Assembly (NCBI GenBank): GCA_963717935.1
Contig: CAVQXP010000004.1
Span: 1,472,001 to 1,536,000, forward strand
DNA length: 64,000 nt
Source: Candidatus Eiseniibacteriota bacterium
GTDB lineage: Bacteria > Eisenbacteria > RBG-16-71-46
Direction of reading: 5' to 3'
A program made the position numbers. Positions 24,001 through 30,000 of this stretch are shown one piece after another; the stretch's first letter is position 1; the number at the start of each line of letters is the position of its first letter.

Positions 24001-27000
24001 GCGAGCAGTCCGCGCAGCGCCTCGGCGGTCGGATCGCCTTCGTCGAGCAGTCTCGCCTCGTCGAGTTGTCCACGGGCCGCGTCGGGCCGCCCCGCGCGCA
24101 GCAGGTCGAAGGCGTAGTCGCAGCGCAGGTCCACCACGCCGGTGCGCAGCCGCACGGCCTTGTCGTACTCCGCGAAGGCATCGTCCCAACGTCCTGCCAG
24201 AGCCAGACTTGAGGCGCGGGCCCGCAGCCCCTCCGGGCTGTCGGACTGGCGCGCGAGAACCGAGTCGGCCGCCGCCAGCGCCGCGGCCGCGTCTCCACGG
24301 ACCCACGCCAGGCGCGCGATCTCGAGGTCCACGAGACGACGGTCGTCGTCGCGCACGTCGGAGCGCATCTTCGCGGCCAGCGCGAGCGCGGAGTCGAGCC
24401 CGCGGCCCCCGTGCCAGGTGGCTTCGGCCGCCTCCGCCACGATGGCACCGCTGGCCGGCAGGGTTGCGAGCGCCCGGTCGGCGGCGGCCAGCATCTCGGG
24501 GCCGCGGTTGCCAAGGTCGAGCGCGCGCGTGAGTGACAGCAACGCGTACTCCTCGTCGGACTTCAGGGTCAGTGCCCTCTGGTAGAAGGGCACGGCCTGG
24601 TCCACCTCGCCGCGCCAGAGGCGATCGTCACCCGCGTTGACGTAAGCCACCGGGTAGCTCGCGTTCACGTCGGTCAGGGCCATGAGCCGCTCGACGAGCG
24701 CCTTCAAGTCGGCGTCCTTGCGCTCGAGCCGGCTGAGCACCTCGGGGCGCGGGTCGTAGGCGTCGCGATCCACGGAGAGCAGGGCATTGGCCCCTTCGGC
24801 GAGGTACTCCTCCACGGCGACGGCGGCGTAGCGGGAGATGAACGCATCGTGGGTCACCTCGTCGCGCGCCTTCGTCCTGCGATAGAGGTCCTGGATCTCC
24901 CGGGACTGGTCCGCCGTGAGCACCGCATGAACCTGGTGGGTCAGCTCGTGCAGGACGGTGTTGTACCTGGCGAAGATCGTCGCCTCGACGTCCTCGATGC
25001 CCGTGACCGTGTGGTAGCCGCCCGAGCCGCGCACGTCGTCCCAGAGGCGCGAGTCGTAGCTGATGCGCTGGTCCTTGAGCGTCTCCTGTCCCGGGACCTC
25101 CGAGAGCAGCATGTACATGGGCTTGATGTAGAAGTCGGCTCCGCCCGCGAGCAGCACGGGGATGAACCGCTGCCAGGGCGCGATGGACAGGGCCACGCGC
25201 TTCTGGTGGCGCGGTGAGAGCGACTTCCAGTTCACGACGAAGCGCTCGATGCCCGCCACCTCGGGCACGGGCGCGGCGGCCAGTCGCGCCTCGTAGCCGG
25301 GGCGGTGCACGTCCACGTCGAAGCGCTGGAACTGGAGCGCCTTGGCGAGGATGGCGTGGCCGCGGCCGTACTCGGGGCAGATGTGGAGCGCCGCGAAACA
25401 CCGGTCGCGCGCGGCGTCGAAGCGGCCGTCCTCGAAGTCGAGCGAAGCCAGCCGCGCGAGCGGGTCCACCCAGCCGGGATGCGCACGGCACACGGCCTCG
25501 TACGCGACGCGCGCGCCGGGGCGGTCGCCGGCGCCGAGCAGGCTGTCGGCGCGGGCCAGCACGCGTCGTCCGGCCGCGTCCGCGAAGGCGTGCGGGTAGG
25601 CGGCGTACAGTTGCGTGTAGTTCCTGCGCACGGTGTAGCCGTTTCCCCGGAGGTAGTGCGCCATGTCGGAGTAGGGGTTCAGCAGGGTGCCCCACTCGGC
25701 CGCGCTGATCGCCTCGTCGGTGCGCCCGACCCGCAGCAGCGCCTGAGCCAGGACCGTCATGGCGTCGCCGCAGGCGTTCGCCCCGACCGCCCTGAGCGCG
25801 GCGGCGAGCGCGCCGTCCCAATCCCGACGCCCGAACCTCACCTGCGTGAGCCCGATCAGGGCCGTGTCGCGGGCGGCTTGGACGTAGCGGCGCCCGGCGG
25901 CCTGCTTCGGCTGCGGTTGTCCGGTGCGCTCGAGCGCGCGGGAGTAGCAGGACTCGGCCCGCGCGAACCGCATCAGACCGCAGGCCAGGCGGCCCGCGGC
26001 GAGCAGGTCGGGGATGCTGGCGTGTTCGGCGGGCGTGGTGAGCGCGCCGCGGGTCAGCGAGTCCACTCGCGCCACGTCGTCGTGCGCGAAGAGCCAGGCG
26101 AGGACGGCCTCGCGCTCTTCCTGGGTCGGATCCGGCTGCGCGGCGATGTTCGCGAACAGCGGCGCGGCGGTGACGAAGTCCTGGCGGGCGAGGAGTGCGC
26201 GCGCCTTCACCACCGTCTCCTCGCGCGCCTCGCCCGTGAGGCGCGGCAGCGATCGGCACGCCTCGTCGATCCTGCCCGTGGCGAGAAGCAGCCGGAGCCG
26301 CCCGGGCGTCACGGGGCCCCTGGCCTGCGTCTCGAGCTGCGCGAGCCGCGCCCGGTACTGCGCCGCCACCGGCGCGAAGAGCCCGGTGTCCGCGGGGGCC
26401 TGGGCCCGCGCGTTCGCGGAAAGCGGGAGTGCCGCGGCAGTGCACATGGCCACGGTGCCGCACAGCAACGCGATCCTCATGACGGTTCCCTCGGGGTGGG
26501 CGTTCCGGGTGTCCCGGCGCGACGGCGCCAATCTAGGCGCGCGTCCCGGACAGCGTCAACGGGCACGGGGCGCCCGTCCCTCGAAGCGCGGCGCTCGTGG
26601 TTTCCGTGGCCGCCGGGCCGGGCGCTCTGCTAGTCTGCCGGACATGAAATCCTCTCTGCGTGCAGTCCCGTTGCTGGTGCTGGCCTGCGCGCTCGCGGCC
26701 TCGTCCGCGAGCCCGGCCCGCGCAGCCGCCGGCTCGAAGCCGGCCCGGAACGCCGCCGCTGGACCGCGGATGGTGCTGCCCTTCGTCCAGGACGACTACA
26801 CGCGGGCGCTCGCCGAGGCGCGTGCCCGCAAGGTGCCGCTCTTCATCGAAGCCTGGGCGCCCTGGTGACACACCTGCCGGTCGATGAGGGCCTTCGTCTT
26901 CACCGATAGGTCCCTCACGCGGCACGCCGGGCGGTTCGTCTGGCTCGAGATCGACATCGAGAAGAAGCAGAACGCGGCCCTGCGCAAGCAGCTCGGGGTC

Positions 27001-30000
27001 GTGGCACTGCCCACCTACTTCGTCATGGACCCGGCCAGCGAGCGGGTGGCGCTGCGCTGGGTGGGTGGCTTCACCGTCGCGCAGCTGGACCGGCTCCTCG
27101 AGGACGGTGTCGCGGCGGTCCGCGACCGGGCGACGACGAGCGGCCCGGGGGCGGCGCTCGCGCGGGCCGACCGTGCCTACGGTGAAGGTGAGGACAGCCT
27201 GGCGGTCCTCGCGTACCGCGAGGCGCTGGCCCAGGCCCCGCCGGGCTGGCCGCAGTACTCCCGGGTGGTCGAGGCGCTGCTCTTCGCGCTCGATCGCACC
27301 GGGGACTACGCGGCGGAGGCGGAACTCGCTCGCGAGGCCTACCCGCGGCTCAGGGGAACGGCATCGGGCGCGACGGTGGCGGGGAGCGGGCTGGGTGCGG
27401 CGCTCTCGTTGCCCGACTCCGCGCCGGAGCGCGGAGTCCTCGTCGGCGCGTTCGAGGCCGGGGTCCGCGAGGTGCTCGCGGACACGGCGCTGGGCATCGC
27501 GGCCGACGACCGGTCGGGCCTCTACATCGCCCTGCTCGATGCCCGCCAGAACGCGAAGGACGAGGAGGGGGCGAAGCGCGTCGCGACGGAGTGGTCCGCG
27601 TTCCTCGACGGCGCGGCCGCCCGCGCGAAGACCCCCGAGCAGCGCACGGTGTTCGATTCGCACCGGCTCTCGGCCTATCGCGAGCTGGGCCAGACCGAGC
27701 GCGCGATCCCGATGCTGGAGGCCTCCGAGCGGGATCTGCCCGGGGACTACAATCCGCCGGCTCGGCTCGCCGCGGCCTACCTGTGGATGAAGCGCTGGGA
27801 CGAGGCTCTGGCCCCTTCGGACCGGGCGCTGGCGAAGGCCTACGGGCCGCGCAAGCTCGGCATCTACTCGACCCGTGCGGACATCTTGAGCGGCAAGGGA
27901 GACCGGGAGTCGGCGCGCAAGACGCTCGAGGAGGCGATCGCCTACGCGAGCGCTCTTCCGCCCGGGCAGCGCTCGGAGAGCGCGATCGCGGGGCTCAAGA
28001 AGAAGCTCGAAGCGCTGAAGTAGCCGTCGTTCGCATCGCAAGGACGCTCTGCGGCCGCCCCTCGACGGGCGGCCGCAGCGTCAGGTGGCGGGGTCGGCCG
28101 ACGGTGGTGGCGCGCTCAGCGCGGCGACGGCGATGCCCGCCAGGATGAGCACCGCGCCGCCGAGCTCGAGTGGGGTGGGGACCTCGTGGAGCAGGCCCCA
28201 GGCGAGGGCGCTCGAGCCCACGGGCTCGCCCAGGAGCGCGATGGCCACGAACGACGCGGGCAGGTAGCGCAGCGCCCAGTTGAAGCTCGAGTGCCCGAGC
28301 AACTGGGGCACGAGCGCGAGCAGCGTGAGCCATAGGTAGGTGGCGGGCGCCAGGCCGAACAGGCTTCGCCCCGTGGCCGTCAGCGCGACCACGAGCACCA
28401 CCGCGGCCATGCCGTAGACCACGAAGACGTAGGGCACGAGCGCGAGCCCCGCGCGCAGGCGGCGCCCCACCATGAGGTAGCCGGCCATCATCCAGGCACC
28501 CGAGAGCGCCATCAGGTCGCCCAGCAGTGCCCGCCCCGCCGGGCCCGCGACCGCGCGCGTCCCGCCGGCGTCGCCGAGTCCCACGATGACGCCGCCTGCC
28601 AGCGCCAGCGCGATGCCGAGCGCGAGCCGGCGCGTGAGCGGCTCGCGCAACACGAGAGGCGAGAGCAGTCCCACCCAGAGCGGCGTGGTCGTCACCAGCA
28701 CCACGGATCTCGCCACCGTGGTGCGCTCGAGCGAGGCGATCCAAAGCGCGAAGTGGGCCGCGAGGAAGATGCCCGCCAGCGCCGCGAGCCGCAGGTCCCG
28801 TGCGGTCAGCCGGGCCAGCGTCCCGCCGTGGCGCGCGAGCGCGAACGGGGCGAGCGCCAGGGTCGCGAACACGAGGCGCCCGGCGGCGATGGTGAGGGAG
28901 GAGGTGGCGGGCTGGGCGTAGCGGATGAGGATCGAGGCCGTCGAGACGGCGACGATCCCCCCCAGGAGGACCAGCAGTTGCACCGGCCGGGCGCGCACGG
29001 GCTGATTATCCGTGATTTCCCGCGGGTGCGCGACCGGATGTAGGATGCCCTGCCTTCCGCCGACCCTGGCGCGAGCGCGAAACAAAGGACGGTCCCGGAT
29101 GAAGCGAGCCCTCGTACTCGTCGTCTTCCTCGGCGTGACCGCGTCGTGGCTCGCCGGCTGCAGCAGCCCGAAGAAGAACGGTGGGGGCCAGGCGGCGGTG
29201 CCCTCGGACATCGCCAGCGCGCACGGCGACGCGGGATCGGGCGGAGGCGTGCCCCCCGAGAGCGCGCCGCCGTCGAGCGGCTCGCCGACCGTGGCCGCGG
29301 GGCTCACCTGGACGCTGCCCGCGGGCTGGACCGTCGAGACGCCGCGCTCCATGCGGGTCGCGACGTACTCCATCCCCGCTGCGTCAGGCGACGCCGAGGG
29401 GGCCGAGTGCGCCGTGTACTACTTCGGCGCCGGCCAGGGCGGTGGCGTGGACGTCAACCTCGAGCGCTGGATCGGGCAGTTCCAGCCCGCGACCCGGTCG
29501 AAGCGTTCGACCAGGAGGGTGAGCGGCGTCCAGGTGAGCCTGGCAGACGTGTCGGGCTCCTACACGGCGCATGGTGGCTCGATGACCCGGCCGCGGGGCG
29601 GCACACCCGGCTGGCGTCTGCTCGGCGCCATCGCCGAGGGCCCGCAGGGTGCGGTCTTCTTCAAGCTCGTGGGCCCGGCGAGGACCGTCGCCGCTGCGAG
29701 CGAGGACTTCGACACCCTGGTCGGCTCGCTGAAGCAGGAGTAGGGGGCGGGCCTCCGGGCCGAACCCCTCAGCCGATCACGGCCTCCGCCTCGATCTCCA
29801 CCTTCCAGCGGGGATCGAGGAGCCTGGCCACGACCACCATGGTGGCCGCCGGGCGCACGTCACCGAACACCTCGCCGTGCGCCCGGCCGATCGCCTCCCA
29901 GTCCGCCGCGTTCGTCATGTACATGCGCGTCCGCACGACGTGCCGCGGCCCGGCGCCGGCGGTGGGACGTTCGAGGGCTACGGCGTCTTCGGGATCGCTG

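Follow-up and report, generated by a model that had tools for sequence, protein, structure and literature searches.

Gene model and domain organization

The window is a 64 000-nt stretch of a Candidatus Eiseniibacteriota genome. In it, an open reading frame (26014..26868) ends in a TGA at 26866-26868, and the next one in the same frame (26884..28023) encodes 379 amino acids. The genome-wide survey's note had joined two gene calls (g01980, 32 aa, and g01981, 379 aa) into one frame across this TGA, and the pieces are arithmetically correct. Its 417-aa product, read from 26770, also adds up, but the gene begins at 26644, 42 codons further 5'; the note had itself placed the true start upstream of g01980, probably with a signal peptide, and the start at 26644 does add one. 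Translated from the ATG at 26644 with TGA as U, the frame gives 459 aa (...FIEAWAPW-U75-HTC78-RSM81...), with the TGA inside W-A-P-W-U-H-T-C and no other in-frame TGA in 26644..28023. Residues 1-459 are matched by orthologues in relatives, and full-length homologues of the Cys form align with the product end to end. The coding features are as follows.

26644..28023, + strand: complete coding sequence, 459 codons plus a TAG stop, with a single in-frame TGA at codon 75 (reading of the frame, end-to-end homologues)
26644..26724, + strand: putative signal peptide M1-A27 (MKSSLR, hydrophobic core, ARA; predicted cleavage site), from sequence features read directly
26782..27123, + strand: thioredoxin-fold domain, residues 47-160 (Pfam PF13899, AlphaFold2, Foldseek, PDB profiles)
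26866..26868, + strand: UGA predicted to encode selenocysteine (U75), which opens the redox motif U-H-T-C at 26866-26877; aligned with Cys
26884..26886, + strand: internal Met81 codon, where gene callers start a 379-aa 'TPR repeat protein' (beginning MRA or MKA in 80 of the 120 nearest database clusters)
27145..28014, + strand: all-helical TPR-like superhelical domain, residues 168-457, about 290 residues (Pfam, model helices 168-457, Foldseek TPR superhelices)

The signal peptide that comes with the start at 26644 supports export of the protein, with a predicted mature form of about 432 residues (459 less the 27 of the putative signal peptide). The same kind of N-terminus was picked in 24 out of 30 orthologues, and by eye in four of the other six. 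Residues 1-38 have pLDDT below 50 in an AlphaFold2 model that is otherwise confident (mean pLDDT 90.4, pTM 0.84).

The note's family assignments were reproduced. Thioredoxin_7 (PF13899), which it had found at E 6e-12 over residues 7-88 across the TGA, matches residues 49-130 of the longer product (E 7.3e-12; 45.7 bits, cut-off 27), a shift of 42 residues that leaves U75 within the match. The Thioredoxin, TPR_12 and TPR_19 matches also recur: PF00085 (Thioredoxin) at 26.2 bits (cut-off 23.5) and TPR_19 at 25.6 bits (cut-off 25) lie above their cut-offs, and TPR_12 at 29.4 bits (cut-off 30.1) and PF13098 at 23.4 bits (cut-off 27) lie below. The model has beta-alpha-beta elements over residues 47-160, including a strand at 66-71 followed by a helix at 76-85; this puts U75 at the start of the helix, the position of CxxC-type motifs in the thioredoxin fold. 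Profile matches in the PDB include 2kuc_A (2.3e-14) and DsbD (4.4e-10). The helical domain carries strongly conserved motifs (AADDRSG, VFDSHRLSAY, DYNPPARL and AYGPRK), seen as invariant columns in the homologue alignment. A Thioredoxin_7-type oxidoreductase fused to a TPR domain, as the note had proposed, thus stands, with the first domain refined to DsbD-gamma/Thioredoxin_7-like by sequence and fold.

Exchange of TGA and cysteine codons at position 75

The note had aligned the TGA with TGC or TGT in two Cys-type loci, and the observation extends well beyond these. Codon 75 is TGA in 23 and TGT or TGC in seven out of 30 loci from relatives, and TGA in 54 and TGC or TGT in 22 out of 76 public loci that have the motif (from 215 related loci the best 80 were taken, and four of these are truncated and lack it). 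Alignment of the query with 27 full-length database homologues shows the invariant Cys of W-C-H-[TS]-C at the U75 column in every one. A minimum of 12 Sec/Cys changes is required on a tree of the 76 rows, and well-supported branches force 10 of these. The 22 codons that precede the TGA show variabilities of 0.21, 0.10 and 0.32 at the first, second and third codon positions (54 Sec-type loci), and the protein is conserved on each side of the TGA, upstream residues included. TGA also serves as a terminator: it ends 30 out of 53 Sec-type orthologues, as well as the two genes that flank this one in the window. A UGA in a column otherwise occupied by Cys, with coding sequence on both sides and UGA used elsewhere as a stop, is the pattern by which bacterial selenoproteins are recognized, and it is found here.

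A SECIS-like hairpin downstream of the TGA

A hairpin that starts about 7 nt after the UGA, and whose conserved upper stem lies 18-49 nt from it, was delimited by folding energies, pair counts and synonymous-codon tests.

26875..26924, + strand: SECIS-like hairpin within the coding sequence
26875-26879 with 26920-26924, + strand: lower stem
26886-26892 with 26910-26916, + strand: conserved upper stem
26896-26898 with 26905-26907, + strand: apical stem, with a loop at about 26899-26904

Over nucleotides +10 to +60, the mean minimum free energy is -25.9 kcal/mol for Sec-type sequences (sd 2.4, 59 distinct sequences) versus -14.7 for Cys-type ones (sd 5.0, 25 sequences), at equal GC content (0.66 and 0.65, respectively). 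A hairpin of -20 kcal/mol or lower, at 10-59 nt past the UGA, occurs in 54 out of 54 Sec loci and in four out of 22 Cys loci. When the positions of the structure named above are considered, 82.8% of cells are paired in Sec forms versus 59.2% in Cys forms, and for the upper stem 79.9% versus 44.0%. Among 10 phylogenetically independent Sec/Cys pairs, the hairpin tracks Sec in seven, is unchanged in three and shows the reverse in none.

The pairing depends on which synonymous codons are used. When the window's own sequence was recoded synonymously, the observed stability was reached in 44 out of 2000 draws; the 10 Sec loci tested reached their own in 0-33 out of 500 draws, and seven out of nine Cys loci in 125-496 out of 500. 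For example, at the Arg codon seven places after Sec, AGG is used by 37 out of 59 Sec forms and two out of 25 Cys forms (three genes of the window use AGG for 16 of their 181 Arg codons); 15 places after Sec, the codon reads NCC in 44 out of 59 and two out of 25, respectively.

The hairpin that the note had drawn with RNAalifold holds up under explicit pair counting and energies, but its alifold figure does not generalize: for the 59 distinct Sec-type sequences RNAalifold returned no consensus structure, as the register of the lower stem differs from lineage to lineage. The note had called the covariation weak; the signal is better when Sec and Cys forms are contrasted, still with no single strict consensus fold. 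Only 14 cells of the hairpin are changed on both sides among the Sec-type sequences, and the paired fraction of 82.8% is a slight excess over a shuffled mean of 81.2%. The apical loop is U-U-C-A-C-(C/G) in most sequences, with no conserved GU, and lacks the G/U features of the Escherichia coli fdhF element, which the SelB of this phylum may or may not require. No Rfam family matched at the hairpin.

Decoding of the UGA

The Sec machinery was found where the note had placed it: the genome has SelA (526.6 bits), SelB (308.1 bits), SelD (339.4 bits) and tRNA-Sec (71.3 bits), and SelB exceeds its curated cut-off in this genome and in 34 out of 41 relatives. The SelD match covers the model only from position 33 on, and the N-terminal part, which has its own TGA, is in a different frame in this assembly; selD may be broken here, or the assembly may contain an indel. 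In same-genus relatives selD has its own single in-frame TGA, and Sec decoding is therefore in use in the group.

Taken together, it is very probable that 26644..28023 encodes one exported 459-residue selenoprotein, with a signal peptide of the Sec export type, a thioredoxin-fold domain and a TPR-like helical domain, in which UGA75 is recoded by SelB and tRNA-Sec. Every computational test run supports the core of this reading (one gene, Sec first in UxxC, a TPR tail and a mis-annotation in databases). That the residue inserted at position 75 is Sec, and not another one, is what the comparative data suggest.

Some of the observations above could also be expected if a tRNA for Trp, Cys or Arg, acting as a suppressor or near-cognate, read through UGA75, the hairpin merely stimulating read-through or pausing the ribosome. 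UGA followed by C is a leaky context, and C follows the UGA in 59 out of 59 Sec-type sequences; a loop unlike the E. coli SECIS loop, and the lack of an RNAalifold consensus, fit as well. However, C is also the next base in 25 out of 25 Cys forms, and therefore reflects the His codon rather than a stop context. The column is moreover that of the catalytic Cys, a classic Sec/Cys exchange, and the machinery for Sec, together with the TGA-containing selD of the genus, is at hand. We consider such read-through improbable.

Slightly less probable still is that the TGA is a real stop, separating a 74-residue exported peptide from a 379-residue cytoplasmic TPR protein that starts at Met81. This is what gene callers report in the 80 clusters mentioned above, and an ATG does lie five codons after the TGA. 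But Met81 is no dedicated start, since it belongs to an RSM motif that is invariant in the Cys forms as well. A stop would cut the thioredoxin fold at its active site; the Cys-form orthologues are continuous single proteins; the codons upstream of the TGA have the periodicity and conservation of coding sequence, and the TGA-specific hairpin would be left without a role.

A pseudogene, or a sequencing or assembly error at the TGA (conceivable in an assembly with an apparent frame break in selD, where indel errors are possible), can in practice be taken as refuted by the comparisons: the identical TGA occurs in the identical column of 59 distinct sequences from independent assemblies under several phylum-level labels, there are no other stops or frameshifts, protein conservation after the TGA is strong, and two contigs from other samples cover the site. 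One of these is a 7311-nt DNA contig; the other is a 314-nt contig of a close relative from an RNA library, which spans 26651-26962 and retains the TGA (14 differences, none at the TGA), and which may derive from DNA in the library.

Database annotation and related families

In automatic gene calls one frame ends at the TGA and a new one opens at Met81, which splits the thioredoxin fold; hence the 379-aa 'TPR repeat protein' of the databases. The note's statement that public annotation mostly takes this form agrees with the truncated calls in the 120 nearest database clusters, none of which contains a U residue.

Sec-thioredoxin is a small single-domain cytoplasmic protein. Like it, the protein described here has a thioredoxin fold and a UxxC motif in which Sec comes first, and matches PF00085; unlike it, it has a signal peptide, Thioredoxin_7 as its best Pfam match, DsbD-gamma as its best structural match and a helical repeat domain of about 290 residues. 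Table 1 of PMC13188914 lists Sec-containing thioredoxin (Trx, PF00085, UxxC) as experimentally verified. The same table, and PMC9312934, give the 'thiol:disulfide interchange protein' family (PF13098, UxxC) as predicted. The latter, too, is thioredoxin-like, has a UxxC motif and belongs to the Dsb/thiol-disulfide interchange kind of selenoprotein, but PF13098 is below cut-off here and the available description of that family, on which the comparison rests, includes no TPR domain. The Trx7/PDZ selenoprotein (NF041199, CxxU) is another predicted selenoprotein in which a Thioredoxin_7-type domain is fused to a protein-binding module; however, its Sec is last, not first, in the motif, its partner is PDZ and not TPR, and NF041199 is absent among the NCBIfam matches at E <= 0.01. 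A 2026 inventory of 119 selenoprotein families has no matching entry. This is a new selenoprotein family, of a well-known kind, set apart from the thiol:disulfide interchange family by the latter's description.

Residues ~42-147 are best matched by the gamma domain of DsbD (NCBIfam DsbD, E 1.4e-10; Foldseek TM-scores normalised to the target of 0.73-0.78 at 24-27% identity), which is extracytoplasmic and receives electrons from the membrane domain of DsbD. The protein differs from DsbD in that it has no membrane or alpha domain, that Sec replaces the first Cys and that a TPR-like domain follows. We rejected its identity as DsbD: of the DsbD domains it has a gamma-like one alone, its score with the DsbD model (40.4 bits) falls far short of the cut-off (330) and DsbD_TM genes lie elsewhere in the genome.

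The note had also seen the architecture of CnoX/YbbN chaperedoxins. The domain order, a thioredoxin fold followed by TPR helices, is indeed shared, and 3qdn_A and 3qou are among the Foldseek matches (E 3e-5 and 1e-4); kinship is not borne out, as the TM-score normalised to the query is low (0.20) and CnoX/YbbN is not among the 60 best profile matches in the PDB. CnoX is described as cytoplasmic and as working with GroEL/ES, whereas a signal peptide is present here and the helical domain is much longer. We therefore rejected this identity, and the link to CnoX/YbbN appears to be one of analogy only. JGI names some of the Cys forms 'thioredoxin-like negative regulator of GroEL'.

Proposed mechanism

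SelB and tRNA-Sec would recode UGA75, recruited by the mRNA stem-loop just downstream, in the bacterial arrangement of a SECIS inside the coding region. Domain homology suggests a possible function: outside the cytoplasm, the U75 selenolate would attack client proteins, perhaps held by the helical domain, at disulfides or at cysteines that are sulfenic or otherwise oxidised, and C78 would resolve the resulting selenylsulfide. Gene neighbourhood is not conserved beyond the genus. Re-reduction could proceed via a DsbD/CcdA-type membrane electron carrier, and the genome has two DsbD_TM matches (C4:411669 and C3:74526).

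Reading frame and domains

An ATG at 26644 on the forward strand opens a frame that ends at TAG 28021-28023 and contains exactly one internal stop, a TGA at 26866-26868; with this TGA translated as selenocysteine (Sec, U75), the frame encodes 459 residues. We hold with high confidence that it is a real, well-supported selenoprotein gene with Sec decoding at U75. The genome-wide survey's note had described a 32-aa gene call that ends at the TGA, a 379-aa call that starts at Met81 and a joined reading of 417 aa from 26770, and all three are sub-readings of the frame from 26644. 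The gene and the parts of its 459-aa translation are as follows:

26644..28023 (+), gene of the thioredoxin-TPR selenoprotein
26866..26868 (+), in-frame TGA, U75
N-terminus, MKSSLRAVPLLVLACALAASSASPARA, a basic start, then a hydrophobic core and an AxA site
Short linker, after the N-terminal AxA region and before the motif
Redox motif region, ...VLPFVQDDYTRALAEARARKVPLFIEAWAPW-U75-HTC78-RSM81-RAFVF...
Helical tail, about 290 residues long

The Thioredoxin_7 domain reported to span the TGA was recovered by Pfam at residues 49-130 (E 7.3e-12; 45.7 bits, cut-off 27), and PF00085 (Thioredoxin) also scores above its own cut-off on the 459-aa protein. Two TPR families had been named for the C-terminal part: TPR_19 stands, being above its cut-off, and TPR_12 falls just under its own. 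NCBIfam gives distant domain-level matches only (DsbD at 1.4e-10, TsoB and TrxC), and none of its family-specific models or selenoprotein 'exception' models matches the 459-aa protein.

Annotation in databases and literature

The family was not found in current inventories and is systematically truncated in databases. Among the best 120 clusters, the nearest in a collection of 5.8 billion proteins, 80 start at Met81 (MRA.../MKA...), of which 48 are exactly 379 aa long and those with a name are mostly called 'tetratricopeptide (TPR) repeat protein', which bears out the earlier claim that public annotation carries a shortened TPR protein. The other 40, which go under the names thioredoxin family, DUF255, thiol-disulfide isomerase or 'negative regulator of GroEL', are full-length cysteine (Cys) forms, and no U occurs in any of the 120. 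NCBI-derived records of close relatives carry the 379-aa form as well (P0013). Recognition of the thioredoxin-TPR family thus corrects a systematic annotation error in sequence databases.

A 2026 review compiled 119 prokaryotic selenoprotein families (PMC13188914). A term search of its full text returned zero occurrences of TPR, PF13899, PF03190, DUF255, Eisenbacteria and chaperedoxin, and the family is not in that inventory by name or Pfam accession. The portion consulted of a 2022 review gives the same picture, the family not being seen there (PMC9312934). Literature searches found no papers on selenoproteins in Eisenbacteria, and no such family among the listed matches to selenoprotein, thioredoxin-like and tetratricopeptide. 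It may be listed under a generic thioredoxin label in the supplements of selenoprotein surveys.

Selenocysteine and cysteine forms among relatives

Searched in six frames, 40 of 41 genomes (the window's own and those of 40 relatives) gave a match. Of the 30 best loci of the relatives, 23 have TGA opposite U75 and seven have TGT or TGC, always within W-[U/C]-H-[TS]-C. Counted over all 41 genomes, the TGA form is present in 28 (in three of them in pieces at contig ends) and the Cys form in seven; in the remaining six the orthologue is absent or there are only weak thioredoxin matches. Public species-representative genomes contain 215 stretches encoding a relative. The best 80 of these have TGA in 54 cases and TGC or TGT in 22, with four cut off before the motif, so that 54 of the 76 motif-bearing stretches are Sec forms. 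The two sets overlap; combined they give 106 rows, which reduce to 59 distinct Sec-type and 25 distinct Cys-type sequences of 75 nt. All 27 full-length database homologues aligned with the query have Cys in the U75 column and signal-peptide-like N-termini, and W74, C/U75, H76, C78, R79, S80 and M81 are invariant in this alignment.

The 22 codons before the TGA in the 54 Sec-type loci vary most at position 3 (0.32), less at position 1 (0.21) and least at position 2 (0.10), as is typical of translated frames. TGA keeps its role as a stop: it terminates 30 of 53 Sec-type orthologues, and it also ends both neighbouring genes and 11 of 24 long high-GC3 ORFs in the window.

A FastTree phylogeny of 76 rows (locus L093 was omitted as too short) cannot be explained with fewer than 12 Sec/Cys changes. 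Well-supported branches force 10 of these, and the Cys forms sit within groups of Sec forms; the tree is unrooted, and no direction of change can be read from it.

The relatives' record titles name Candidatus Eisenbacteria/Eiseniibacteriota, Acidobacteriota (Thermoanaerobaculia, Vicinamibacteria and Terriglobia-labelled MAGs) and Gemmatimonadota, and the family spans all three, these names being metagenome-bin labels that are possibly wrong. Single records are titled Myxococcota/Deltaproteobacteria and Saccharimonadaceae. The family is widespread across soil and sediment lineages. Four Sec-type loci (L102, L060, L053 and L067) carry the titles Candidatus Saccharimonadaceae (a 246-kb contig), Deltaproteobacteria and Terriglobales/Acidiferrales; they cluster on the tree with Eisenbacteria and Acidobacteriota rows, the explanation being either a wrong bin label or a transfer. 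In each of 20 sequencing runs a small share of the gene's words is present, from which we draw no habitat reading.

A hairpin downstream of the UGA

The 80 nt from the window's own UGA, all inside the coding sequence, fold at -37.1 kcal/mol (z -2.37; matched by 5 of 200 shuffles). Such a single-sequence fold is weak alone in a GC-rich gene, and we therefore contrasted the Sec and Cys forms. Between nt +10 and +60 the minimum free energy averages -25.9 kcal/mol in the 59 Sec-type sequences (sd 2.4, range -31.5 to -20.5; GC 0.66) versus -14.7 in the 25 Cys-type sequences (sd 5.0; GC 0.65); the Mann-Whitney p of 2e-11 for this difference is overstated because kin are not independent. Across 10 independent Sec/Cys pairs on the tree, a hairpin at least as stable as -20 kcal/mol accompanies Sec in seven, runs the other way in none and stays unchanged in three (sign test p 0.016). 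Counted by rows, such a hairpin is present in 54 of 54 Sec forms versus 4 of 22 Cys forms.

RNAalifold on all 59 Sec-type sequences returned no consensus pairs, because the lower stem pairs in differing registers between lineages, as seen in the single folds. We instead counted an explicitly named structure, with columns numbered from the U of UGA:

Columns 10-14 paired with 55-59
Columns 21-27 paired with 45-51
Columns 31-33 paired with 40-42

In the Sec forms 82.8% of its cells are paired, a small excess over the 81.2% of the shuffle control, and the figure drops to 32-52% once the 3' partners are displaced by 1 to 3 columns. Both-side changes occur in five pairs, together with 18 further pair types, a number reached by none of 500 shuffles. 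For the Cys forms 59.2% of cells are paired, with all measures inside the shuffle range. The upper stem accounts for 79.9% paired cells in Sec forms versus 44.0% in Cys forms.

When the protein was held constant and codons were redrawn from local usage, 44 of 2000 redraws equalled the window's hairpin, and 0-33 of 500 did so for ten spread Sec loci. For seven of nine Cys loci the observed value falls in the bulk of the redraws (125-496 of 500); the Cys loci L007 and L110 still keep a hairpin (31 and 63 of 500). Codon choice differs accordingly at two places. Seven places downstream of Sec, 37 of 59 Sec forms but only 2 of 25 Cys forms use the Arg codon AGG, which makes up 16 of the 181 Arg codons counted in three genes of the window. 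Fifteen places downstream, NCC stands in 44 of 59 Sec forms and 2 of 25 Cys forms, and 15 of the 25 Cys forms have NCG.

With a stem starting 7 nt downstream of the UGA and a loop at roughly 31-36 nt, the geometry fits the bacterial SECIS arrangement; the loop (UUCAC with C or G) is not known to resemble that of E. coli fdhF. The hairpin does resemble the one that follows the in-frame TGA of this genome's own selD. An Rfam search of 26600-27100 at permissive thresholds gave three chance-level matches only. The Rfam result, the loop sequence, the empty RNAalifold consensus and the small excess over shuffles count against the hairpin.

One same-genus genome (G006; loci L007 and L033) encodes Cys (TGT) in the thioredoxin-TPR protein and keeps a stable hairpin of -24.2 kcal/mol. 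Its SelD is of Cys type and SelB is not above cut-off, in a genome that is 81% complete; a loss of Sec decoding is unsupported, since SelA (522.6 bits) and tRNA-Sec (66.2 bits) are retained. G006 may represent a recent Sec-to-Cys conversion with a fossil hairpin, and no clean trait loss.

The protein is standard in kind, a thioredoxin-fold selenoprotein of the UxxC type with a probable bacterial SECIS inside its frame and the usual recoding mechanism, so that a specialist would find the family useful rather than surprising. The family's 12 or more Sec/Cys changes, together with hairpin loss after Sec loss, offer a clean natural system in which to study how SECIS elements decay and how Sec and Cys replace each other.

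Selenocysteine machinery and other selenoproteins

The machinery listed in the survey's note is encoded in the window's genome: SelA (526.6 bits), SelB (308.1 bits, a 584-aa open frame), SelD (339.4 bits) and tRNA-Sec. Two of these loci lie together on contig C4, outside the window:

C4:1909313-1910210, selD, with an in-frame TGA (CSG-U-ASK) and then a hairpin
C4:1910457-1910550, tRNA-Sec, directly after selD, 71.3 bits

CSG-U-ASK matches the UxxK motif that Table 1 of the 2026 review lists for SelD (PMC13188914). The N-terminal part of this selD is in a different frame from its body, with the model match starting only at position 33, and the break is either an assembly indel or a recent real lesion. 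SelD in 12 relatives is full-length with one TGA in seven, full-length with none in four and not found in one; the full-length forms with one TGA indicate that Sec decoding is in use in the group. SelB is above cut-off in 34 of the 41 genomes and does not separate Sec from Cys genomes (23 of 28 TGA-type, 6 of 7 Cys-type, 5 of 6 without an orthologue), the five TGA-type genomes without it being 53-90% complete.

Scanning the whole genome for TGA codons by GC3, motif and hairpin brought up no further candidate that convinced, SelD having been found by hand; the scans are crude, the first filter missing even the thioredoxin-TPR gene, and are therefore no proof of absence. A search for Sec-type formate dehydrogenase (TIGR01553) found none, the best match reaching 62.8 bits with no internal stops. 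Another thioredoxin-like match containing a TGA (C4:309398-309814) proved to be a normal Cys protein with the motif EWCPPC, and the TGA there terminates the gene. The selenoproteome may be very small, its size being beyond what such crude scans can establish.

Protein fold and possible role

An AlphaFold2 model from a 28-row alignment (mean pLDDT 90.4, pTM 0.84) predicts residues 1-38 to be disordered, a thioredoxin fold at 47-160 in which U75 starts helix 76-85, and then 16 helices to residue 457. Foldseek matches the tail to TPR superhelices and the thioredoxin domain to DsbD-gamma (1vrs_E, 1uc7_A, 2fwf, 4ip1; TM-score normalised to target 0.73-0.78, 24-27% identity). At the top of a family-profile search of PDB sequences stand a 'putative disulphide-isomerase' (2kuc_A, 2.3e-14) and DsbD-gamma (4.4e-10). 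The architecture had been likened to that of CnoX/YbbN, but the two proteins of this thioredoxin-TPR type reach a TM-score normalised to query of only 0.20, and CnoX is not among the best 60 PDB profile matches; the likeness is one of domain order.

The signal peptide, fold and motif lead us to infer an exported thiol-disulfide oxidoreductase, for which two DsbD_TM-type genes in the genome are possible electron donors. Invariant motifs of the helical domain in the 27-homologue alignment (DDxS 288-291; D338/R341/L342; P366-D368-N370-P371; G401-P402-R403) exceed the needs of a generic scaffold, which suggests that this domain may have a specific partner or ligand; a client-holding role would follow by analogy with CnoX. 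One natural Cys homologue falls among atlas clusters whose members are Thioredoxin_7/Thioredoxin_2/TPR proteins 270-475 aa long, from Myxococcota, Acidobacteriota, Planctomycetota and other groups; none of them is characterised. It seems quite improbable to us that the Sec machinery serves very few proteins in the genus and that the thioredoxin-TPR protein, as a selenium-dependent extracytoplasmic 'chaperedoxin' (holdase-reductase), is the main reason why these soil and sediment bacteria keep selenocysteine.

Expression and genomic context

One metatranscriptome run contains a 314-nt contig over 26651-26962 at about 95.5% identity, with 14 differences, none at the TGA. At most, it shows that in a close relative the stretch encoding the signal peptide and the 5' end of the '379-aa gene' are joined on one molecule in an RNA library, DNA carry-over being possible; the lack of RNA-contig cover over other parts of the gene carries no meaning.

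No conserved partner gene was found beyond the genus in the flanks of 111 loci, where the biggest cluster holds 6 of 143 flanking ORFs. Two neighbours recur, all in close relatives, the first in 6 and the second in 5 of the 111 loci:

23724..26531 (-), divergent 935-aa protein with many TPR matches and HExxH (VLHELTHQVH)
28081..29373 (-), EamA-family transporter (PF00892, E 1.2e-30), convergent with the selenoprotein gene and with a TGA stop

The 935-aa protein is possibly a TPR-flanked metallopeptidase. The 430-aa ORF call of the EamA gene probably starts too far upstream, as its Pfam match starts at residue 134.
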